Shown: in pieces, positions 661-50,323 of the stretch | Layout: every line of letters starts with the position of its first letter | Numbering within the stretch: the first letter of the stretch is position 1 | DNA from: Escherichia virus TH57 | Strand: one strand, 5' to 3' | Length of the DNA: 64,000 bases | Sequence record: MT446422.1 | Notes under the pieces: model-generated | What the model was told of the DNA's origin: nothing | The model's input: the letters and a program-made list of their open reading frames with translations, nothing else | Database searches by the model: none | Translations under genes and position numbers: made by a program

Positions 661-936
661 ATGATATATAAGATTTGGACGTATATCTCTATTTTTGTTA
701 TTGCTGGAATTGCATTTATCCCCACACAAACAGATAGCGAGAGATATGAAAGGGAAATTGAAATAGTAGCAAGCACGTATCATTCTGTTAATAAAGAATG
801 CCCGAATAAAAATGGAATAAATTTACAAAAAGCACATTATATGCTGACTGTTACTAGTCCGGTGCAAAGAATATGGGTTGATAGCCATTTTTCTGATTTA
901 TTTGCAATATATTGTTTCAAGTTTAAAAGATTATAA
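661..936 (+). CDS. hypothetical small membrane protein (rI.1 position)
   Basis: 91-aa ORF with N-terminal hydrophobic segment, 8 nt after tk stop. Confidence 0.5.
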   Translation: MIYKIWTYISIFVIAGIAFIPTQTDSERYEREIEIVASTYHSVNKECPNKNGINLQKAHYMLTVTSPVQRIWVDSHFSDLFAIYCFKFKRL

Positions 937-1010
937 ATACAGTTACTAACTAGTATTCCGCTATGTTAAGGCTGCAAAGCGTAATCATGACCAACAATAA
1001 GGAGTCCTTT

Positions 1011-1304
1011 ATGGACCTTATTCGAGGACTTTCTCTAAGTCTATTACTAATGGGCTGTTTAGGCCCAAATCTGTCCTCTGCTACAGATGGTAAATTTACA
1101 CAGTATGCAGATAGTGCGATGCAAATCTATTCGCAATTCAAAGAACCTAGCGTCGAGCAGTCCGAACAATTTTGGGCTTTTATTAAAACCGAATGGAACA
1201 ATAAGAGTCAATGTGTAAATGAAATCACATGTCAAATTGATGGCCGTGCTGCTGCAGTCGAATACGCTAAATTAATGAAGGTAAAATTGGAAGATGAAAT
1301 TTGA
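1011..1304 (+). CDS. rI: lysis inhibition regulator rI
   Basis: 97 aa from internal ATG with AAGGAG SD; signal-anchor N-terminus; C-terminal half resembles T4 RI. Confidence 0.75.
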   Translation: MDLIRGLSLSLLLMGCLGPNLSSATDGKFTQYADSAMQIYSQFKEPSVEQSEQFWAFIKTEWNNKSQCVNEITCQIDGRAAAVEYAKLMKVKLEDEI

Positions 1305-4191: not shown

Positions 4192-5198
4192 GAACAGTTA
4201 TGAAAGGCTACTTCGGTAGCCATCTTTATGGAACAAGTACTCCTGAATCTGATGTCGATTTTAAGGAAATCTTTGTTCCACACCCACGTGATATTCTGTT
4301 AGGTACGGCTATGAACCATACCAACTTGAACACGAATAATACGGCATCCAAAAACACTAAAGACGATGTTGACCACGAGCTTTATAGTCTGAAATATTTC
4401 TTTAAACTGGCGGCTGAAGGCGAAACTGTTGCTCTGGACATGATTCACACTCCGGCTAACCTGGTAGTCAAATCCGATTTACCAGATGTATGGAAATTTA
4501 TCCAAGACAACCGTTCACGGTTCTATACAACTAACATGAAAGCCTATTTGGGGTATGTCCGTAAGCAAGCTTCAAAATATGGTGTTAAAGGTTCTAGACT
4601 GGCTGCTCTGCGTGGTGTACTGGCAATTGTTAACCAGATTCCTGAACAGTGGGTCGATTATCAAGAAGATGGTTCTGTTAAACAGCGTCGAACTAAGGTA
4701 GAAGATATTAAGCACCGACTCCCTGAAAACGAGTTCTGTGAATGGGTATTTCATAACCATGAGAAAACAGGTCCTCAAACGTTCTATACTGTCCTCGGTC
4801 GTAAATACCAAACCACTTTGTCGTTAATCGAGCTTAAGCAATCTCTGAATAAGCTTGATTCTGAATATGGTGAACGTGCTCGCAAGGCCGAAGCCAATGA
4901 AGGTATTGACTGGAAAGCTCTGAGCCACGCTTATCGTGCTGGATATCAGTTGAAGGAAATTTATATGACCGGTGACCTTCAATATCCTTTACGAACAGCC
5001 CCATTTATCCTTGAAATCAAACAAGGCCTACACGCTTTTAAAGATGTACAAGCTGAACTTGAAGCAATCGTCGATGAAGTCGAAACCAATGCCATCTGGG
5101 CGGCCAAGAACGGCATGCCAGACAAGGTAGACATGAAGTTCTGGGACAAGTTTGTTGAAGAGGTATATCTTGACAACCACAATTCCTATTATTGTTAA
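4188..5198 (+). CDS. putative nucleotidyltransferase-fold protein
   Basis: 336 aa; N-terminal GSHLYG...SDVDF resembles the minimal NTase motif; ATGA overlap with upstream ORF. Confidence 0.45.
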   Translation: MRTVMKGYFGSHLYGTSTPESDVDFKEIFVPHPRDILLGTAMNHTNLNTNNTASKNTKDDVDHELYSLKYFFKLAAEGETVALDMIHTPANLVVKSDLPDVWKFIQDNRSRFYTTNMKAYLGYVRKQASKYGVKGSRLAALRGVLAIVNQIPEQWVDYQEDGSVKQRRTKVEDIKHRLPENEFCEWVFHNHEKTGPQTFYTVLGRKYQTTLSLIELKQSLNKLDSEYGERARKAEANEGIDWKALSHAYRAGYQLKEIYMTGDLQYPLRTAPFILEIKQGLHAFKDVQAELEAIVDEVETNAIWAAKNGMPDKVDMKFWDKFVEEVYLDNHNSYYC

Positions 5199-5203
5199 AT
5201 TCT

Positions 5204-5229
5204 AAGGACCCTTCGGGGTCCTTTTTTTA
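5204..5229 (+). terminator. rho-independent terminator
   Basis: GGACCC-TTCG-GGGTCC hairpin followed by TTTTTTT. Confidence 0.75.
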
Positions 5230-5242
5230 TTTTAAAAAGTAG

Positions 5243-5311
5243 TGTACGACCAGATGGTTATGAGGCATAATGATTCCATACTGAGTTACCAAATAAAAAC
5301 TGGAGAATAAA
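5243..5311 (+). promoter_or_regulatory. early promoter cassette, CCATACTGAGTTACC leader type
   Basis: AAAAAGTAGTGTAC -35 region, 17-bp spacer, CATAAT, conserved leader GATTCCATACTGAGTTACCAAA..CTGGAGAATAAA ATG. Confidence 0.6.
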
Positions 5312-5518
5312 ATGTTAGAATTAATCAAAGCTGCTGGTGAAAAAGGTCTGATGGTTAACACTCGTGACCCTGAACAACGTCAAGCATTTGGTGAGTTAAA
5401 AGCCAAAGGTCTGGTTAAAGCATCCCTTGGTATTGGCAATGCTTTGCGTGTGACTTTGACCCCTGCAGGTAAAGCAATGTTCTTCCCTAAACCATTACCA
5501 AAACGTCGTCGCAAGTGA
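5312..5518 (+). CDS. hypothetical small basic protein
   Basis: 68 aa, C-terminal KRRRK, directly after promoter cassette. Confidence 0.5.
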   Translation: MLELIKAAGEKGLMVNTRDPEQRQAFGELKAKGLVKASLGIGNALRVTLTPAGKAMFFPKPLPKRRRK

Positions 5519-7551: not shown

Positions 7552-8439
7552 ATGAACATTAAAACACGTAAAGAATATTCTCGATTTGAACAGCGTGAAG
7601 GTCGTGCGACTCGTCTTATCGCGATGAATTCTCTGGTTAACTTTGGCAAAATTAAATCAGGTTCTGCCACCCAGGGGTATGGACAACGTATTGTAAGAAT
7701 TAACTCTCTGAATGATTACTGCCGCCGCCCGGCGTTTTTGTTTGGTGCCACAGTTCGTAAGAGCATCAAGGAAATCCTGGCTGCTGGGCTTCGTATTCGT
7801 AAAGCTCCGGTTAACATCAAGAACTATAATTTCAATTCTAGTAACTTGATTATCAATATCAAGAATGATGGTGTGCAGATTAAGTTCAAGCCAACTACTA
7901 AAGGCGATGTTGCCCTTTGTGATACCTTTAAAGAGGTTATGGGTATTGCTCTGTTTTATATGCGTCATGCTGTTGAAGCATACACGTTTGAAGAAGATAC
8001 AAATTATATCCATCAAACAGAAAAATTCCTTAAAACTATAACCATTGATATTAAATTAACTAAAGAATATCTTTTGTCTTATGCTCCTTATCAAGAGAAA
8101 AATGAACCAGAAGAGAAAAAGGAATCAGAAATGGAACGTATCCCTACTGCATCATATGGCCCAGCATTTGCAGGTCAGTATAAAACACAACCTATTTCAC
8201 CACCGGACGTTAAAAATATGTACAAATGGAACGTCCAGCCATCCAGCTCTCTTGGAATCTTTAACCCATCAATGAAACCTATTGAGAGCCATCATGCTGA
8301 TGCTATCCAGGAATCAGTCAACCGCTTAAACGGTCTGATTGAAGATGAGAAAAAGGGTATTCAGGACGTCCTGAATCGCATCAAGAACATGGAAAAACAA
8401 CGCAATAAATTGCAAGCTGCAATCAAAGCATTAAAATAA
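7552..8439 (+). CDS. hypothetical protein with C-terminal coiled-coil
   Basis: 296 aa from in-frame ATG just after upstream stop; C-terminal heptad-like tail. Confidence 0.5.
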   Translation: MNIKTRKEYSRFEQREGRATRLIAMNSLVNFGKIKSGSATQGYGQRIVRINSLNDYCRRPAFLFGATVRKSIKEILAAGLRIRKAPVNIKNYNFNSSNLIINIKNDGVQIKFKPTTKGDVALCDTFKEVMGIALFYMRHAVEAYTFEEDTNYIHQTEKFLKTITIDIKLTKEYLLSYAPYQEKNEPEEKKESEMERIPTASYGPAFAGQYKTQPISPPDVKNMYKWNVQPSSSLGIFNPSMKPIESHHADAIQESVNRLNGLIEDEKKGIQDVLNRIKNMEKQRNKLQAAIKALK

Positions 8440-11663: not shown

Positions 11664-11839
11664 TGAAAACTAAATTAGTCTATACTGAAAAGTTAAATGG
11701 TGCCAAGGTCTGGAAACTTCTTATCAAAGGAAGTCCTACTGACCAGTTTATGGCCACCTGTGTGGGATTGTATACTCGCCCTACCAAAAAGATGATTCGT
11801 CAATTTAAACGGTTGCATCGCTCGTTCTATAATATTTAA
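11663..11839 (+). CDS. hypothetical small protein
   Basis: 58-aa ORF, TAATG overlap with upstream gene; not in track. Confidence 0.4.
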   Translation: MKTKLVYTEKLNGAKVWKLLIKGSPTDQFMATCVGLYTRPTKKMIRQFKRLHRSFYNI

Positions 11840-11874: not shown

Positions 11875-12348
11875 ATGTTGTTGACTGGCAAATTATACAA
11901 AGAAGAAAAACAAAAACTTTATGATGCACAAGCTGGTAAGTGTCCAATTTGCCACCGTGATTTGGACTCTGATGTTCAGGCCAACCATCTTGACCATGAC
12001 CACGAATTGAACGGGCCAAAAGCCGGTAAGGTTCGCGGGTTACTATGCAATCTGTGCAATGGAACAGAAGGGCAAATGAAGCATAAGTTCAGCCGTTCGG
12101 GTCTGAAAGGTCGTGATGTTGACTACCTGGAATGGTTGGAGAGTTTGCTTGTCTATCTGAAATCTGATTATACCGAAAACAATATTCACCCCAATTTTGT
12201 AACAGACAAAGCCAAAGAGTTTGGCCGCCTGGGGAAAGAAGAAATGATTCGGGAAATGCTTTTGAATGGTATGACTTATAATGAATCTGACACCAAAACA
12301 CAATTAATGGCTTCATTTAAGAAGCAGCTTAGAAAGAGTTTAAAATGA
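11875..12348 (+). CDS. 49: endonuclease VII, Holliday junction resolvase
   Basis: 157 aa, near-identical to recalled T4 gp49 including Zn-binding cysteines. Confidence 0.92.
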   Translation: MLLTGKLYKEEKQKLYDAQAGKCPICHRDLDSDVQANHLDHDHELNGPKAGKVRGLLCNLCNGTEGQMKHKFSRSGLKGRDVDYLEWLESLLVYLKSDYTENNIHPNFVTDKAKEFGRLGKEEMIREMLLNGMTYNESDTKTQLMASFKKQLRKSLK

Positions 12349-17919: not shown

Positions 17920-18477
17920 ATGAACGAAATTAAATTAACCAAGAATAACTATGTAAATAATAAAGAGCTTTTGAAAGCTATTTCGGAGTGGAAACAGAAG
18001 CTGAATGCGAACACCGACCCGAACAAAATTATTCGCCAGAACGATGTTATTGGTCTGGCGATTATGCTTATAGCCGAAGGTCTTAGCAAACGTTTCAACT
18101 TCTCCGGATATACCCAATCCTGGAAGCAAGAAATGATAGCAGACGGAATTGAGGCCGCAATAAAAGGTCTTCATAACTTCGACGAAACAAAATACGATAA
18201 TCCACATGCTTACATAACAATGGCTTGCTTCAATGCTTTCGTTCAGCGTATCAAAAAAGAACGTAAAGAAATGGCAAAGAAATATAGCTACTTCGTCCAT
18301 AACGTATATGATTCACGTGACGACGATATGGTGGCTCTGGCTGATGAAACATTTATCCAGGACATCTACGACAAAATGACACAGTACGAATCCTCTTTAG
18401 TTAAAGCGCCAGGGTCTGATAAGAGCGCCAAAGATAAAGAAGGTGATTTGGATTTTTTATATGGAACATCAATTTGA
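17920..18477 (+). CDS. 55: late-transcription sigma factor gp55
   Basis: 185 aa; long stretches identical to recalled T4 gp55. Confidence 0.92.
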
Positions 18478-21133: not shown

Positions 21134-22812
21134 AAACGTTTAAGCTTAAGAAAGTTATCTATAAAAATATTATGTCGGTTGGTGCTCAACCGATTACTGT
21201 TGAACTGGATAAAGTCCAGAAAACTCTTGTAACTGGCAAGAATGGCGCAGGGAAATCTACGTTCCTTGAAGCGGTTACCTTTGCTATGTTCGGTAAGCCT
21301 TTCCGTGATGTAAAGAAAGGTCAGCTGATTAACTCGAGCAACAAAAAAGATATGCTCGTTGAATTGTGGATGGAATATGATGGAAAAGAATACTATATCA
21401 AACGCGGGCAAAAACCCAATGTTTTTGAAATCTCTTGTGGCGGTAAACGTCTTGATGAATCTGCCAGCAGTAAAGACTTCCAAGCGGAATTTGAACAGCT
21501 TATCGGAATGTCATACGCAAGCTTCAAACAAATTGTCGTACTCGGCACAGCTGGATATACCCCTTTTATGGGCCTATCCACTCCTGCCAGAAGAAAGCTT
21601 GTCGAAGACCTTTTAGAGGTTTCTGTACTGGCCGATATGGATAAGCTGAACAAATCTCTTATCCGCGAAGTCAATAGCCAAATCCAGGTGATGGATGTAC
21701 AGCATGACGGTATCGTTCAACAGATTAAAATCTATCAGGACAACGAAGACCGTCAAAGAAAATTGTCAGGCGATAATCTGTTGCGACTGCAAACGATGTA
21801 TGATGAACTTGCCACAGAAGCACGTGGAATCAAGGCAACTATCGAAGAAGCAACGACAAGACTGACCGAGATAATCTTGGGAGAAGACCCTGAGCACGAA
21901 CTCACAAAGTTAAAGCAGGAATCATTCCTGATTAAATCGAAGATTGACGATTATCGAAAGGTTGTTGGTCTGTACGAGAAAGGTGGTTGTTGTCAGACCT
22001 GTGCCAGTCAGTTGCATCCAGGAGACCCTATTGTCGCCAGGATTGAGTCAAAGATTGAAGAATGTAATGCATCGGCTGATAAGCATAAAGCTCGCCAGAA
22101 TGCTGTTCAGGAGCAATTTGATGCGTATACCAAGGCAAGACAAAACCAGCGTACAATAGCTCAAGACATTCAAACTAAGAAACAAACCTTAGTCCAGACT
22201 GTCGAAAAAGCTAAAAAGGTTAAAGCATTAATCGAGCAAGCCAAGTCAGAATTCATTGACCATGCAGCAGACATTAAAATGCTTCAAGACCAGCTTGATA
22301 AAATAGTCAAACAGAAATCTGACCTTGTGATGGAAAAATATCAACGTGGTATCCTAACGGATATGTTGAAAGATTCTGGTATCAAGGGCGCGATTATTAA
22401 GAAATATATTCCTATCTTTAATAAGCAGATAAACGCTTATCTTAAAGTTATGGAAGCTGATTATAGCTTTACGTTAGATGAAGAGTTCAACGAAACGATT
22501 AAATCTCGTGGACGTGAAGACTTTAGCTATGCATCATTTAGCCAGGGTGAAAAAGCTCGTATAGATATTGCATTGCTGTTTACATGGCGCGATATTGCTG
22601 CGAAAGTATCTGGTGTTAATATTAACACATTGATTCTGGATGAAGTTTTTGACTCGGCCACTGATGTAGAGGGTGTTAAAGCAATTGCTACCATCCTGAA
22701 CAAATTGGAAGACACCAACATTTTTATTATCAGTCACCGAGACCATGACCCGGAAGCATACGGGCAACATCTCCAGATGAAAAAAGTTGGTCGATTCACC
22801 GTTATGGAATAA
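21130..22812 (+). CDS. 46: recombination endonuclease subunit gp46 (Rad50/SbcC-like)
   Basis: 560 aa; Walker A GKNGAGKST; CxxC zinc hook; strong match to recalled T4 gp46. Confidence 0.92.
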   Translation: MKTFKLKKVIYKNIMSVGAQPITVELDKVQKTLVTGKNGAGKSTFLEAVTFAMFGKPFRDVKKGQLINSSNKKDMLVELWMEYDGKEYYIKRGQKPNVFEISCGGKRLDESASSKDFQAEFEQLIGMSYASFKQIVVLGTAGYTPFMGLSTPARRKLVEDLLEVSVLADMDKLNKSLIREVNSQIQVMDVQHDGIVQQIKIYQDNEDRQRKLSGDNLLRLQTMYDELATEARGIKATIEEATTRLTEIILGEDPEHELTKLKQESFLIKSKIDDYRKVVGLYEKGGCCQTCASQLHPGDPIVARIESKIEECNASADKHKARQNAVQEQFDAYTKARQNQRTIAQDIQTKKQTLVQTVEKAKKVKALIEQAKSEFIDHAADIKMLQDQLDKIVKQKSDLVMEKYQRGILTDMLKDSGIKGAIIKKYIPIFNKQINAYLKVMEADYSFTLDEEFNETIKSRGREDFSYASFSQGEKARIDIALLFTWRDIAAKVSGVNINTLILDEVFDSATDVEGVKAIATILNKLEDTNIFIISHRDHDPEAYGQHLQMKKVGRFTVME

Positions 22813-31752: not shown

Positions 31753-33176
31753 AAACTATTTTATCCCAGCTACTCTTTAACAAGGAATATTTTGTTAAAG
31801 TCTGGCCATATCTTAATAACACATATTTTGAAAAGGGTCCAGCAAAGACCCTTTTTAATACGATTAACGAACACGTAAAAGAATATCAAGCGGTACCAAC
31901 TAAGACTGCACTTGATATCGCGCTCGACAGTTCTGACCTTTCTGAAGTCGAATATGAAGGCACAAAGAAACTCTTAGGAGTCCTGGCCGATACTCCAGAA
32001 GACCAGGAATGGTTGGTCAAAGAAACCGAGAAGTATGTACAGAAGTCTGCGATGTTCAATGCCACATCCAGGATTATCGAAATCCAGAGTAATGCCGAAC
32101 TTCCAAAAGATAAACGTGATAAACGAATCCCAGATATTGGGGCTATCCCTGACATCATGCGCGATGCATTGTCCATCTGTTTTGACTCTGCTCTGGGGCA
32201 TGACTGGTTAAACGATTACGAAGCTCGATTCCAGACTTATCTGAACAAATCGAAGAAGGTTCCGTTCCGTATTAACATCCTGAATAAAATCACGAAGGGT
32301 GGAGTTGAGTACGGCACAGAGAACGTTTTACTGGCCGGGACAAACGTCGGCAAATCCCTTGGACTTTGTTCGTTAGCGGCTGACTATCTTCAGACTGGTC
32401 ATAACGTGCTTTATATAAGCATGGAAATGGCTGAAGAAGTATGTGCCAAACGTATTGATGCCAACTTGTTGGATGTATCTCTGGATGATATTGATGAAGG
32501 TCATGTGTCATGGGCAGAATACAAAAGTAAGATGGAAAAATGGCGTGCTTCCGGGACTCTCGGGACTCTGAAGATAAAACAATATCCAACTGGGGGCGCG
32601 CATGCGGATACCTTCCGTGCATTACTGAACGAGTACAAACTGAAGCAAGGATTTGTACCGGATGTGATTATTGTTGACTACCTGGCAATCTGCGCAAGCT
32701 CAAGACTGAAAACGTTTACCGAAAACAGTTACGGCCTGATTAAGATGGTTGCAGAAGAACTTCGTGGTCTGGCGGTCGAGAAAAATGTGGTCCTGTGGAC
32801 TGCAGCACAGACAACCAGGGGCGCAAACGTTGCAGCTGAGATTGACATGGCTGACATCGCAGAATCCTTTGGTATTGCTCACACGGCTGACTTTATGTTG
32901 GGTGTTGTTGAGACCGAAGAATTCGCTCAAATGGGACTGCAGTTAATCAAACAGCTTAAGTCTCGTTATGGCGATAAGAACTACTATAATAAATTCAAGA
33001 TGGGTGTTAAGAAAGGTAATCAACGCTGGTATGAGGTTGATGATGATTCAGCTCCTAAACAAGGCCCTACGGTGAAAGAAGCCACTGGTGAGATGAATCG
33101 TCAGGCTGAAATGAATAGACAAACCAGGGTCAACAGGAGCGACCTGGATGACCTTGCCGCTCAAATGAAATTTTAA
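31746..33176 (+). CDS. 41: replicative DNA helicase gp41
   Basis: 476 aa from GTG with GAGGTGG SD, N-terminus aligns with T4 gp41; Walker A GTNVGKS. Confidence 0.9.
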   Translation: MVETILSQLLFNKEYFVKVWPYLNNTYFEKGPAKTLFNTINEHVKEYQAVPTKTALDIALDSSDLSEVEYEGTKKLLGVLADTPEDQEWLVKETEKYVQKSAMFNATSRIIEIQSNAELPKDKRDKRIPDIGAIPDIMRDALSICFDSALGHDWLNDYEARFQTYLNKSKKVPFRINILNKITKGGVEYGTENVLLAGTNVGKSLGLCSLAADYLQTGHNVLYISMEMAEEVCAKRIDANLLDVSLDDIDEGHVSWAEYKSKMEKWRASGTLGTLKIKQYPTGGAHADTFRALLNEYKLKQGFVPDVIIVDYLAICASSRLKTFTENSYGLIKMVAEELRGLAVEKNVVLWTAAQTTRGANVAAEIDMADIAESFGIAHTADFMLGVVETEEFAQMGLQLIKQLKSRYGDKNYYNKFKMGVKKGNQRWYEVDDDSAPKQGPTVKEATGEMNRQAEMNRQTRVNRSDLDDLAAQMKF

Positions 33177-38098: not shown

Positions 38099-38106
38099 TA
38101 TAAATA
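38099..38106 (+). promoter_or_regulatory. late promoter TATAAATA upstream of soc
   Basis: exact TATAAATA about 30 nt upstream of soc ATG; soc is a late gene in T4. Confidence 0.6.
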
Positions 38107-38137: not shown

Positions 38138-38371
38138 ATGGGTGGTTTCGTTAATATCAAAACCTTCACGCATGCAGCTGGTGAAGGTAAAGAAGTTAAA
38201 GGTACTGAGGTTTCAGTTCCATTTGAAATCTATTCTGATGCGCATCGTATTGCTAATGCTCATTATCAGACTTTCCCTTCGGCCGTTGCAGCCTATTCTA
38301 CCGTAGTGACTGATGCTGCTGACTGGAAGACCAAGAACGAGGCAATGTTTACGCCGACCGATATTGTTTAA
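38138..38371 (+). CDS. soc: small outer capsid protein Soc
   Basis: 77 aa; VNIKTF...YSDAHRIANAHYQTFPS matches recalled T4 Soc. Confidence 0.85.
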   Translation: MGGFVNIKTFTHAAGEGKEVKGTEVSVPFEIYSDAHRIANAHYQTFPSAVAAYSTVVTDAADWKTKNEAMFTPTDIV

Positions 38372-46123: not shown

Positions 46124-46615
46124 ATGAAAGTTGAAGCTGGTGATATTGTACGTGTTTCTAAAGAATCTCGTTCCAAAGCTGCTGGTCGTTTTGTTGAGGT
46201 TGTGGGTCTTCGCACTAATTTAGCAGGTGGAATTAAAGAAGTTAAAGTGCGCATCATTCCTAAAAATGGTCAGACTGAAACTCAATTGGCTTATGTGCAT
46301 CCTAAATTCCTGGAATCAACCGAATTTACTGGGTACATCGCTCCTGTGGCCGAAGAAGTTGAAACTATTGACCAGTCTCATGTTGGGGTTGATTTTAAAT
46401 GGAAATTGGGCAAAGGTGTCTTTTTTGTTTCACCTAAACCGTTTGAATATAATTGTCAGTATGGTCCGACTTATGAAACCACTAGCATGTCTGGTTATAT
46501 CACAGACCAATGGGTTGAAGAAGGTGTCAAACTGTATAATATCGTGTTCCTTGGAACCTTTAAGGTTGTTCCTGAGAGCTTTATTGTCGAGTATGCTGAT
46601 ATTCATTTTGCCTAA
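46124..46615 (+). CDS. motB: MotB-like protein (positional)
   Basis: 163 aa; position between dexA and 39; size as T4 MotB. Confidence 0.5.
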   Translation: MKVEAGDIVRVSKESRSKAAGRFVEVVGLRTNLAGGIKEVKVRIIPKNGQTETQLAYVHPKFLESTEFTGYIAPVAEEVETIDQSHVGVDFKWKLGKGVFFVSPKPFEYNCQYGPTYETTSMSGYITDQWVEEGVKLYNIVFLGTFKVVPESFIVEYADIHFA

Positions 46616-46662
46616 ATTATAAAAATGATAGGGTAATTTGCCCTATCAATGAGGAGAATATT

Positions 46663-46887
46663 ATGTTTAATGAAGATTGTGTGACCACTTCCCTGACTGC
46701 TGAAGAGTTTTGGGATACTGCTGAAAGTGATAAAGTGATTGTGAAGAAAAACATCAATGAATTTCTTTGCACCACTGATATCATTTATGTGTATGCAGAC
46801 AAAGACGCAGAACTACCTAGCTATGCGTTGTTCCGTGAAGAATCAGAAGATGGTACAGATTTTTGGAAGGAGATTTATAATGTCTAA
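46663..46887 (+). CDS. hypothetical acidic protein
   Basis: 74-aa ORF with GAGGAGAA SD. Confidence 0.5.
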   Translation: MFNEDCVTTSLTAEEFWDTAESDKVIVKKNINEFLCTTDIIYVYADKDAELPSYALFREESEDGTDFWKEIYNV

Positions 46888-47426: not shown

Positions 47427-47687
47427 ATGAAATATATTAATCGTTCTATTGCCGCGCTGGTTTTGGCAGTTTCATTGACTGGTTGTACTGATGCAGATAA
47501 TGCTGTTCGCGTATTAGATGCAAACGGCTATGAGCAAATCCAAATCACCGGATATAACTGGTTTGGATGCTCTAAAGATGATTTCCAGCATACTGGTTTT
47601 ACAGCAGTGGGTTCAACTGGTAAGAAAGTTGAAGGAACTGTTTGTTCTGGATTGTTGTTCAAGAATTCAACCATCCGATTTGAATAA
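47427..47687 (+). CDS. hypothetical lipoprotein
   Basis: 86 aa; signal peptide plus lipobox LTGC. Confidence 0.55.
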   Translation: MKYINRSIAALVLAVSLTGCTDADNAVRVLDANGYEQIQITGYNWFGCSKDDFQHTGFTAVGSTGKKVEGTVCSGLLFKNSTIRFE

Positions 47688-47705
47688 GGCCTTCGGGCCT
47701 TTTTG
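47686..47705 (+). terminator. rho-independent terminator
   Basis: AGGCC-TTCG-GGCCT followed by TTTT. Confidence 0.7.
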
Positions 47706-47728
47706 CTTTAAAATATGTGACTTATAAT
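47702..47728 (+). promoter_or_regulatory. middle-type promoter upstream of gene 39
   Basis: TTTGCTTTA MotA-box-like element, 12 bp, TATAAT. Confidence 0.5.
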
Positions 47729-47750: not shown

Positions 47751-49583
47751 ATGATGATTAATAATGAAATTAAAGTACTCTCGGACGTCGAGCATATCAA
47801 AAAACGTTCCGGGATGTATATTGGTTCCAGTTCAAATGAAGCGCATGAGCGATTCTTGTTTGGTGAATATAAGTCCGTAAGCTATGTTCCTGGTATTGTA
47901 AAACTGATTGATGAAATTATTGATAACTCTGTTGATGAAGCAATTCGCACCAGTTTTAAATTTGCCAATAAAATTGATGTCCAAATTAAAGATAATCAGA
48001 TTTCGGTTTCTGATAATGGCCGTGGTATTCCACAGGCAATGGTTACAGACCAAAACGGTGAACAAATCCCTGGCCCTGTTGCAGCATGGACTATTCCAAA
48101 AGCAGGTGGCAACTTCGGCGATGATGCTGAACGTAAAACTGGCGGGATGAATGGCGTCGGGTCTTCTCTGACCAATATTTTCTCCGTATTGTTCACCGGG
48201 ATTACCGCTGATGGGGCGAACGAAATTACTGTTAACTGCTCCAACGGTATGGAAAACAAATGTTGGTCGACTAAGAAATCAAAGGGTAAAGGTACGACTG
48301 TTATATTTATTCCAGATTTTAGTCACTTTGAAGAAAATAGTCTGTCCCAGATTTATCTGGATATTACATTGGACCGTCTGCAGACTCTTGCTGTTGTTTA
48401 TCCGGATATTCAGTTCACCTTTAATGGTAAAAAGGTTGATGGCAACTTCAAGAAGTTCTCCAAGCAATTCGGAACCGAAGTTGTTATTCAGGAAACTGAT
48501 ACAGTATCGATGGCCTTTACGACCAGCCCAGACGGTTTCCGTCAGTTGACTTATGTCAACAACATTCATACAAAGAATGGCGGACACCACGTTGAATGTG
48601 TTATGGATGATATCTGTGAACACCTTCAGCCGGCGATTAAGCGCAAATATAAAGGCATTGAGGTGACCAAGGCACGAGTTAAAGAATGTCTCACCATGCT
48701 TATGTTCATCCGCGATATGAGCAACATGCGATTTGATTCCCAAACCAAGGAGCGATTGACTTCTCCGGCTGGTGAAATCCGAAATCACATTAAGATTGAT
48801 GCTAAGAAAATCGCGCAAGCTATTCTGAAAAATGAACCGCTGATTATGCCGATTGTTGAAGCTGCATTAGCCCGTAAATTGGCTGCAGAGAAAGCAGCAG
48901 AGACTAAGGCAAATAAGAAAGCTTCAAAGGCCAAGGTACAAAAGCATATCAAGGCCAACGAATGGGGCAATGATAAGTTGGAAACGACTCTATTCCTGAC
49001 CGAAGGGGATTCTGCAACTGGCCCATTTATCAAGGTTCGCGACCGTGAATTGCAGGGTGCTTATCCATTACGGGGCAAGTTTAAAAACACATGGGGCCTG
49101 AAAGCTATTGACGTTATGAAGAACGCTGAAGCCTTTGATGTGTGTGCAATTACTGGATTAACGATTGGACAACCGGCCGAGAATATGAATTACCGAAACA
49201 TTGCTATCATGACAGATGCGGATGTGGATGGTGTCGGTAGTATCTATCCATCGTTATTGGCGTTTTTCAGTAACTGGCCAGAGCTGTTCCATGAAGGACG
49301 AATTCGCTTTGTGAAAACTCCTGTTATTATTGCGCAGCTCAAAGATAAACAAGAATGGTTCTATTCTCTTCCTGACTATGAAGAAGCTAAGGATAAACTT
49401 CCGAAGCACACCATCCGATACATCAAGGGACTTGGTTCTCTGGAAGATGCCGAGTACAAACGCGTATTGCTCGAACCGGTATTCGAAGTTGTTCAATTGC
49501 CTGACAACTGGAAAGAACTGTTTGAAATGTTATTCGGTAAAGATTCCCAGCAGCGCAAAGATTGGATGAATGCGACGCTATAA
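47751..49583 (+). CDS. 39: DNA topoisomerase II large subunit gp39 (ATPase), unsplit
   Basis: 610 aa continuous ORF covering the region that T4 splits into genes 39 and 60. Confidence 0.92.
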   Translation: MMINNEIKVLSDVEHIKKRSGMYIGSSSNEAHERFLFGEYKSVSYVPGIVKLIDEIIDNSVDEAIRTSFKFANKIDVQIKDNQISVSDNGRGIPQAMVTDQNGEQIPGPVAAWTIPKAGGNFGDDAERKTGGMNGVGSSLTNIFSVLFTGITADGANEITVNCSNGMENKCWSTKKSKGKGTTVIFIPDFSHFEENSLSQIYLDITLDRLQTLAVVYPDIQFTFNGKKVDGNFKKFSKQFGTEVVIQETDTVSMAFTTSPDGFRQLTYVNNIHTKNGGHHVECVMDDICEHLQPAIKRKYKGIEVTKARVKECLTMLMFIRDMSNMRFDSQTKERLTSPAGEIRNHIKIDAKKIAQAILKNEPLIMPIVEAALARKLAAEKAAETKANKKASKAKVQKHIKANEWGNDKLETTLFLTEGDSATGPFIKVRDRELQGAYPLRGKFKNTWGLKAIDVMKNAEAFDVCAITGLTIGQPAENMNYRNIAIMTDADVDGVGSIYPSLLAFFSNWPELFHEGRIRFVKTPVIIAQLKDKQEWFYSLPDYEEAKDKLPKHTIRYIKGLGSLEDAEYKRVLLEPVFEVVQLPDNWKELFEMLFGKDSQQRKDWMNATL

Positions 49584-49586
49584 ATA
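49579..49586 (+). promoter_or_regulatory. late promoter TATAAATA overlapping the gene 39 stop
   Basis: exact TATAAATA. Confidence 0.45.
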
Positions 49587-49591
49587 GATGT

Positions 49592-49607
49592 GGGAGAATA
49601 TTCTCCC
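49592..49607 (+). repeat. perfect 16-bp palindrome
   Basis: GGGAGAATATTCTCCC between the late promoter and the next ATG. Confidence 0.9.
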
Positions 49608-49623
49608 GCTACTAGGAGACAAT

Positions 49624-49776
49624 ATGACTAAATACTGGATTACACTCGCTACCGGTGAATATGGTTTTCTCTGGGCAGAGAAAAAGCCTTTGTTTGCAGA
49701 ATTTGTAACAATCACGTGCGAAACCTGGGAAGGTGAAACTTTCATGGCGTATGGTCAAGTCTATAAAGTAGAATAA
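49624..49776 (+). CDS. hypothetical small protein
   Basis: 50 aa from ATG with AGGAGA SD; followed by terminator. Confidence 0.4.
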   Translation: MTKYWITLATGEYGFLWAEKKPLFAEFVTITCETWEGETFMAYGQVYKVE

Positions 49777-49780
49777 AATT

Positions 49781-49806
49781 TGGTCTCCTTCGGGAGACCT
49801 TTTTAT
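49781..49806 (+). terminator. rho-independent terminator
   Basis: GGTCTCC-TTCG-GGAGACC followed by TTTTT. Confidence 0.75.
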
Positions 49807-49854
49807 TATGTACAAGCCACAAAAATTGTGTTAAGATGTCTTTGAGGTGAAAAT

Positions 49855-50139
49855 ATGATTATGTCTGACGGAAGTTTAGTTAATCTGCAAAATGTTGCAC
49901 GGTGTATTATGGAAGCAGGTCTAAGGAAGGTGCAGGGGCTCCCAGATAACGACAGGAAGCGAAGTTACTTGTTAGCTGTAAGAACAACAGCCATGAGCAT
50001 TAAGGCTGGCCAGAAGGTCCCTGAGGAGCGAATTGAAGCACTCCTTGCATTGATATACCATGACCAAGAACATAAAGCTACCATGCGTAGTATGAGAAAA
50101 ATATTACAGGAGATTGGAAATGACGAACTTCAAAGTTAA
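49855..50139 (+). CDS. hypothetical protein
   Basis: 94-aa ORF. Confidence 0.5.
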   Translation: MIMSDGSLVNLQNVARCIMEAGLRKVQGLPDNDRKRSYLLAVRTTAMSIKAGQKVPEERIEALLALIYHDQEHKATMRSMRKILQEIGNDELQS

Positions 50140-50323
50140 TATGGAACTGTTTGATAAGGCTATCCATAAAGAGTACCGTGTTATCCAACGATTTTTTGAT
50201 ATAAGAGAAGCTGAAGAGTTTAAAGAACGCTTCAAAGAAATCCGTATTAAAATAGCTTCTGACGCCGCAACAAAGGATGAACTTCTTGAAGTTGCAGAAT
50301 TAATCAAACGTAACATAAAGTGA
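50114..50323 (+). CDS. hypothetical protein (rIIA.1 position)
   Basis: 69-aa ORF; start uncertain. Confidence 0.45.
   Translation: MEMTNFKVNMELFDKAIHKEYRVIQRFFDIREAEEFKERFKEIRIKIASDAATKDELLEVAELIKRNIK

Follow-up and report, generated by a model that had tools for sequence, protein, structure and literature searches.

Introduction

In T4, genes e, soc, 49 and I-TevI each possess a late promoter embedded in the sequence that specifies the 5′ strand of a hairpin, and on early transcripts this hairpin hides the Shine-Dalgarno (SD) sequence and/or the AUG (PMC3014915). Here we describe a related layout in Escherichia virus TH57 (sequence record MT446422.1), of which one stretch of 64,000 nucleotides (nt), hereafter the window, was analyzed. 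At the 3′ end of gene 39, a late promoter box is followed by a hairpin and by an open reading frame (ORF) of 50 amino acids (aa), hereafter ORF50. We favor, at a probability of roughly 55%, the reading that these elements make up a self-contained, conserved late-expression cassette at the end of the gene 39 middle unit, with a leader hairpin that differs according to the origin of the transcript. The layout is a variant of a T4 regulatory design already known, and not a protein-binding operator. It resembles that of the four T4 genes in that ORF50 lies in an early-direction unit with predicted read-through from upstream, in that the box is set against the 5′ arm, and in that the predicted late RNA of most relatives lacks part of this arm. 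It differs in that the SD and AUG, which lie inside the helix in the T4 genes, are outside it here, and in that only 5 of the 8–12 arm bases are lost, an inner stem being retained by the late RNA; the window lineage loses next to nothing, just a weak GU/GC and UAG/CUA extension.

The T4-type late box spans positions −13 to −6, with A or T at −13 common among T4 relatives (PMC1524935) and A(−13) found at 9 of 50 T4 late promoters (PMC2988020); in a survey of five genomes, every late promoter predicted stood before an orthologue of a T4 late gene (PMC1524935). The TH57 site shares with these promoters the exact consensus, the A(−13) variant seen in its relatives and a phage-encoded gp55, and departs from those surveyed in preceding a small ORF of the early region without an orthologue in T4. 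A second point of comparison is the 5′-terminal stem-loop of the E. coli ompA mRNA, which is credited with stabilizing that message in the passage of PMC2777011 that cites Emory, Bouvet and Belasco (1992). The hairpin described here is predicted to start at the first nucleotide of the late RNA, with +1 and +2 paired in all 25 hairpin-bearing relatives and a 6-base-pair (bp) stem in the window; unlike the ompA element, its inner stem is only 3 bp in several genera, which is too weak for protection. A third is the set of stable intercistronic hairpins of T4 early regions, C(UUCG)G hairpins among them, that Tuerk et al. reportedly described in 1988. The TH57 hairpin is, like these, short, stable, devoid of a U-tract and located between two early-strand cistrons, and differs from them in keeping register with a late box across genera and in co-occurring with one particular ORF.

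Results

Layout of the locus

The box TATAAATA occupies 49579–49586 on the plus strand and, as stated in a preliminary description of this DNA made from the sequence alone, overlaps the end of gene 39, whose TAA stop (49581–49583) it contains; we assign it on its exact match to the late consensus and its conservation in orthologous loci. By the distance rule of PMC1524935, late transcription is predicted to start at G49592, the sixth base after the box. This base opens the perfect 16-nt palindrome GGGAGAATATTCTCCC (49592–49607), which as RNA would form the hairpin GGGAGA-AUAU-UCUCCC (−10.1 kcal/mol, z −2.8), flush with the predicted late 5′ end. On read-through RNA only, an extended hairpin (49585–49614, −14.6 kcal/mol) is predicted, adding GU/GC and UAG/CUA around the core; this outer extension is weak in the window lineage and amounts to five perfect pairs in most other genera. 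The SD, AGGAGA (49615–49620), is outside the conserved helix, and ORF50 (49624..49776, plus strand; VR7ORF004c, phrog_4369, no Pfam match) starts with ATG at 49624. An intrinsic terminator, GGTCTCC-TTCG-GGAGACC+TTTTT, with a UUCG loop and a five-T run, follows at 49782–49804. A terminator is found at this place in every relative examined, with differing stems, and it is predicted to close both the gene 39 unit and a late RNA of ~213 nt (length to the end of the T-run). The palindrome, SD, ORF and strong terminator all stand where the preliminary description had put them. Translation from an in-frame ATG at 49588, possible on read-through RNA only, would yield 62 aa, and extended forms are annotated in some GenBank records (Bp7, AnYang); we rejected this start, which has no SD and is not conserved.

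Neither motif is exceptional by number. TATAAATA occurs five times in the window against 4.9 expected, which is the chance level, and perfect 16-nt palindromes number four where 1.16 are expected, so that a single one is unremarkable (the others are TTCAGGACGTCCTGAA at 8360, GTGTTAATATTAACAC at 22613 and TTTAAAATATTTTAAA at 33172). Since both motifs are at chance level, the window sequence by itself settles nothing, and the case for their reality rests on conservation in relatives.

The late promoter box is conserved together with ORF50

Searches with tblastn found ORF50 in 276 phage records, ~2.3–3.0 kb from the record start where numbering begins at rIIA, and the ORF was directly 3′ of gene 39 in all 15 loci fetched. 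We read 16 annotated GenBank loci and 79 IMG/VR loci, the latter retrieved with the gp39 C-terminus as query because the 50-aa protein alone returned only two near-identical IMG/VR loci. The comparison comprises 28 unique orthologous intergenic sequences, with 25 unique relatives in the hairpin pair tables, and spans at least 10 genera (Gaprivervirus, Dhakavirus, Kanagawavirus, Jiaodavirus-type Klebsiella phages, Kagamiyamavirus, Winklervirus, Tegunavirus, Moonvirus, Jiangsuvirus and others). T4 itself is without the ORF and has an early promoter at the corresponding place.

All 28 unique intergenic sequences, drawn from at least 10 genera, carry the heptamer ATAAATA unchanged, with T or A before it, and this heptamer is the sole invariant stretch besides the ATG in an alignment of 27 sequences. 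After gene 39, the box was present at 31 of the 32 IMG/VR loci with the ORF versus 2 of the 47 loci without it. It is followed by five variable bases and then by a purine (G or A) at the predicted +1 in every one of the 25 unique hairpin-bearing sequences; the box-to-start segment is GATGT here (3/5 A/T) and ranges from 2/5 to 5/5 A/T in the relatives. The late sigma factor gp55 is encoded at 17920–18474 of the window and is 100% identical to VR7 gp55 by tblastn, and gene 45 is annotated in VR7.

A skeptic could hold that TATAAATA is not a working promoter at all, being kept by the stop codon and an A/T-rich context, with ORF50 as the distal gene of a middle transcript and the hairpin as a neutral element or structural spacer. 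The chance-level count of the motif in the window fits this account, as does the overlap of stop and motif, since the gene 39 stop is embedded in the box in most genera. Against it, at least 10 genera share seven unvarying bases followed by five that vary freely, the sixth base after the box is always a purine, and the motif is missing after gene 39 in 45 of the 47 ORF-less loci. Moreover, the box stays intact where the stop lies separately upstream of it: TG1, MHG19 and PspYZU05 have an exact TATAAATA there, and the IMG/VR locus L043 has AATAAATA. We regard a non-working box as quite unlikely, and conclude that TATAAATA at 49579–49586 is probably a functional late promoter with a predicted start site, in support of the preliminary description, which had read it as one.

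Two departures from the common arrangement were seen. In L076 and L077 (~1716–1780), whose gp39 is 52% identical, TATAAATA soon follows gene 39 and a different ORF comes next, with no hairpin. The IMG/VR contig L042 (~1716) carries an ORF50 homologue directly after a truncated gene 39, with no spacer, through either deletion or faulty assembly of the contig.

The palindrome is an RNA hairpin conserved by covariation

The preliminary description had left two roles open for the palindrome, that of a protein-binding operator and that of an RNA hairpin controlling translation. Across relatives the pairing is kept and the sequence is not. A hairpin folds in 27 of the 28 unique sequences, with minimum free energies between −5 and −19 kcal/mol; z is below −2 in ~20 of 25. 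Positions 1–5 after the box are paired in 18–23 of 25 sequences with four to five pair types each (for example tgtat/ataca, ttacg/cgtaa, tagta/tacta and gtaag/cttac), and positions 6 and 7, the predicted +1 and +2, form purine-pyrimidine pairs in all 25. In an alignment made with a covariance model built from four gap-free sequences, 97.3% of stem cells are paired compared with 70.3% in shuffles, and 9 of 10 pairs are changed on both sides. The covariation score of this alignment, which is fitted to the structure and includes four extraneous rows (three reverse-strand self-hits and one unrelated hit), is 0.696 compared with 0.223 for shuffled alignments (0/500 shuffles), and slid controls gave 0.05–0.09; register-anchored pair tables were used besides. 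MAFFT followed by RNAalifold found no structure in the 27 unique spacers, because covarying arms cannot be aligned by sequence. A search of 49300–50100 against Rfam gave no meaningful match (best E = 0.99).

The structure is also strand-specific. In 23 of 25 sequences the plus strand gives the more stable fold (mean −12.2 versus −9.1 kcal/mol for the minus strand), owing to G.U pairs that become A.C mismatches on the minus strand. As judged from the compared sequences, the structure acts in plus-strand RNA, as a hairpin in the ORF50 leader. With sequence changing while pairing is kept, and with G.U pairs on the plus strand only, the palindrome is thus an RNA hairpin and not an operator, so that of the two roles first suggested it is the RNA one that holds; control of ORF50 translation by the hairpin is no more than plausible. 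A DNA operator, at which a dimeric phage or host protein would regulate the late promoter, would account for the perfect twofold symmetry exactly at the predicted start. Its own sequence should then be preserved; instead, loop sequence and length vary along with the arms, G.U pairs break the DNA-level symmetry in 21 of 25 relatives, and the search for further copies that the preliminary description had proposed yielded none, whether in the window or in bases 1–100,000 of VR7. We consider an operator highly improbable.

We gave similarly little credence to the idea that the hairpin, together with TATTTAT, is an intrinsic terminator of minus-strand (antisense) transcription. A pattern scan does list the minus-strand orientation as terminator-like, the stem being followed there by ACAUCUAUUU, a weak terminator match, and in most genera the stem directly adjoins TATTTAT on that strand. 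Yet the minus-strand stems are the weaker ones in 23 of 25 sequences, the supposed U-tract is the invariant TATTTAT and not a variable T run, and in the window it lies 5 nt from the stem. The nearest minus-strand candidate late box with an SD and a gene start is, in addition, at ~63 kb; this gene start resembles that of the holin gene t. In T4, gene t is convergent with asiA. On the plus strand the stem is followed by GCUACUAGG, and no intrinsic terminator in the sense of a G+C-rich stem followed by a U-tract was found at the hairpin.

The hairpin keeps register with the box

Of the 25 unique relatives, 21 have a 5′ arm that opens with the first or second base past the box. Most relatives therefore have five arm bases upstream of the predicted +1 and a full stem of 8–12 bp on read-through RNA, and the inner stem is flush with the predicted late 5′ end in all lineages. 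The stability of the whole stem is conserved across genera and that of the inner stem is not, the inner stem being worth −10.1 kcal/mol in the window and between −1.2 and −3.4 kcal/mol in the lineages of the Klebsiella phages, L048 and L062. Because bases −5 to −1 covary, selection acts on RNA that contains them, which is the read-through RNA.

The same observation would suit a generic intercistronic stability element of gene 39, one that blocks 3′-to-5′ exonucleases after downstream cleavage and so protects the topoisomerase message, with adjacency to the box a side effect of a compact spacer: the conserved quantity is whole-stem stability, and the stem is whole only on read-through RNA. This explanation gains further from the ORF-less loci L023, L035, L056 and L073, in which a hairpin, there a true terminator, directly follows the gene 39 stop, and from a similar hairpin between motB and cef. 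The position of the hairpin speaks against it, being anchored to the box and not to the stop: among the sequences whose hairpin opens at base 1 or 2 past the box is TG1/L033, where the stop precedes the box by 9 nt. Hairpin and ORF are moreover found together (PspYZU05 having the ORF without the hairpin), and the unit already has a strong terminator hairpin 175 nt downstream. We judge a stability element unlikely.

The ribosome-binding site is not sequestered

Sequestration of the SD, as in e and soc, was rejected on structure, since the helix ends before the SD. The 3′ end of the full stem lies 11–18 nt before the AUG, within the 5′ part of the 30S footprint. The computed cost of opening the region from −20 to +13 is 13.7 kcal/mol on RNA beginning right after the box versus 9.4 kcal/mol on RNA beginning at +1, and a difference of 4–8 kcal/mol in footprint opening recurs in ~20 of the 28 unique sequences.

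Two further mechanisms were considered and set aside. When the 5′ arm GGGAGA is unavailable, AAUAUUCUCC can pair in the window lineage with GGAGA and AAUAU of the SD/AUG region (49598–49626; −6 kcal/mol, z −2.9), and VR26 keeps the UCUCC/GGAGA part of this pairing. A three-part switch acting through AAUAUUCUCC was rejected as a general mechanism, the complementarity being absent in most genera, and also because a ribosome stopping at 49581–49583 should unwind the RNA to ~49590 only, the limit set by the standard ribosome footprint, and leave the core intact. Cleavage by RegB at the GGAG of the SD was rejected because the Klebsiella-phage, L048, MHG19 and PEi20 lineages have AAGGAA, without GGAG.

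The upstream unit predicts read-through transcription

The window belongs to a T4-like phage of the genus Gaprivervirus, with 97.8% identity to Escherichia phage 212, 97.4% to Shigella phage SP18 and 94% to VR7. The VR7 annotation gives the plus-strand order goF, 39.2, 39.1, 39, VR7ORF004c, VR7ORF003c, rIIA.1, rIIA, which sets the cassette between the fused 39+60 topoisomerase gene and the rIIA block, on the strand that carries early and middle genes. Gene 39 (47751..49583, plus strand; ORF list and VR7 annotation) encodes the large subunit of DNA topoisomerase II in the fused 39+60 form of 610 aa. Its unit is bounded on the 5′ side by an intrinsic terminator, AAGGCC-TTCG-GGCCTT followed by TTTTGC (47686–47701, plus strand), which ends the upstream 39.1 unit. 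The terminator directly adjoins (47686–47728) a predicted middle promoter of gene 39 (47701–47728, plus strand), composed of the MotA box tttTGCTTTA (47701–47710), a 12-nt spacer and the −10 element TATAAT (47723–47728), by match to the consensus (a/t)(a/t)(a/t)TGCTTtA at 12±1 bp from TAtaaT (PMC2988021). With such a promoter upstream of gene 39, read-through RNA is expected in the middle period, and a pattern scan from this promoter to 49782 listed no notable terminator-like site. VR7 carries between 39.1 and 39 an extra 696-nt ORF, VR7ORF006c, that overlaps the gene 39 start (L001 663–1358; VR7 record 4816–5511); the window is without this ORF, which may be a mobile insertion.

ORF50 and the following unit

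ORF50 is a real gene. Residues W5, L8, G11, G14, V28, I30 and G44 are invariant, and its membership in phrog_4369 is not matched by any Pfam family. The AlphaFold2 model (pLDDT 97) consists of four beta strands in a small SH3/Tudor/KOW-like barrel, and only eight small clusters were found among 1.84 billion representative proteins. The arrangement suggests that the 50-aa protein has a role late in infection.

Directly downstream, a candidate sigma-70-like promoter (TGTACA, 17 nt, TGt-TAAGAT; 49809–49837, plus strand) would serve the DUF7367 ORF (49855–50139), rIIA.1 and rIIA, and a related sequence, GTTTACA...GATACGAT, is found in Dhakavirus. The terminator-then-promoter junction after ORF50 is kept in both Dhakavirus and Gaprivervirus. 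The DUF7367 ORF (94 aa, PF24075) overlaps the start of rIIA.1 (PF24210) by 26 nt (49855–50323).

Box-hairpin layouts at other genes

Gene 49 and soc in the window have the known T4 arrangements, soc serving as an internal comparison. At gene 49 (endonuclease VII, 11875–12348), AATAAATA at 11838 is directly followed by the hairpin CCCTTATC/GGTAAGGG, the 3′ arm of which is the SD, and at soc (77-aa ORF, 38138–38371), TATAAATA at 38099 is directly followed by a long hairpin enclosing both SD and AUG. A further TATAAATA lies at 932, ~70 nt before an rI homologue (MDLIRGLSL...; window 932–1304), with a leader that pairs from base 1 after the box (−7.1 kcal/mol), and the same is seen in VR7. Within bases 1–100,000 of VR7, a hairpin follows the box at a distance of 1–4 nt at e, rI, 49, soc and ORF50.

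The spacer between motB and cef (46613–46665) contains ATTATAAAAAT, one mismatch away from the late box, then the hairpin ATAGGGTA-attt-GCCCTAT at 46630–46648, and then an SD. This hairpin matched the covariance model of the ORF50 hairpin at 21 bits, and its stem resembles the ORF50-site stems of Klebsiella and Serratia phages.

Discussion

We propose that RNA polymerase carrying gp55 recognizes TATAAATA and would start at G49592, and that the late product would be a monocistronic RNA of ~213 nt ending at the 49782–49804 terminator. Read-through RNA from the gene 39 promoter would carry the whole stem, and in most relatives the first 5 nt of the 5′ arm would be missing from the late RNA. The long stem would then, in most genera, abut the ribosome-binding region of read-through RNA and dampen initiation there; with the late RNA more open, synthesis of the small protein would favor the late period. 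The outer stem appears to have decayed in Gaprivervirus, and the 6-bp G/C-rich core would be whole on the late RNA; in the window lineage, the most likely role of the hairpin would be that of a flush 5′-terminal stem-loop that shields a short late mRNA from 5′-end-dependent decay and leaves the SD free.

A stronger form of the proposal is one we put forward tentatively, with more doubt than conviction. The hairpin may sense the origin of the transcript without hiding the ribosome site, the start splitting its 5′ arm such that the middle RNA bears a long stem that occludes 30S standby binding and the late RNA a short flush stem-loop, with the SH3-like 50-aa protein limited to late infection. 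Such a sensor, if real, would be a distinct variant of the e/soc mechanism.

Several observations weigh against the cassette as we interpret it. In no lineage does the helix include the SD or AUG; it ends 1–8 nt before the SD, and the SD-to-AUG region has an unpaired probability of 0.46 on the early RNA versus 0.54 on the late RNA, a measure that discriminates poorly even for soc (0.26 versus 0.40) and that we do not use as a main argument. Because this accessibility hardly differs, any translational effect would be indirect. The early/late difference in opening cost is itself ~0 in Gaprivervirus (window, VR7, VR20, VR26), as it is in Moonvirus and TG1, and in the window lineage read-through and late RNA carry almost the same hairpin. 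The inner stem, at the −1.2 to −3.4 kcal/mol given above, has only 3 bp in several genera, and a 5′-protective role therefore cannot be universal. PspYZU05 has the box and the ORF with no hairpin, so that the hairpin would be a modulator and not a requirement. A hairpin just before an SD also occurs between motB and cef, without a consensus late box. Among the VR7 box-hairpin candidates, 5 of 8 on the early strand have the layout versus 1 of 8 on the late strand, numbers small enough that the strand bias is suggestive only. The fitting of the covariation alignment to the structure counts on the same side, and literature searches found no mapped late 5′ ends for VR7-like or phiR1-RT-like phages.

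Literature searches found no published description of the cassette. The finding stays within the known repertoire of T4 regulation and is an incremental gain that holds little surprise for the specialist; its use lies in annotation and in offering a neat test case. It extends the T4 rule of a late promoter abutting a hairpin to a case in which the ribosome site is not sequestered, and the extended rule raises other roles for such hairpins, namely occlusion of 30S standby binding, 5′-end protection, or both. For annotation, [T/A]ATAAATA followed by five bases, a purine and a stem on the early strand would mark a gene as likely late despite its location. The cassette flags phrog_4369, which is common to many T4-like phages of enterobacteria, as probably having a late function.

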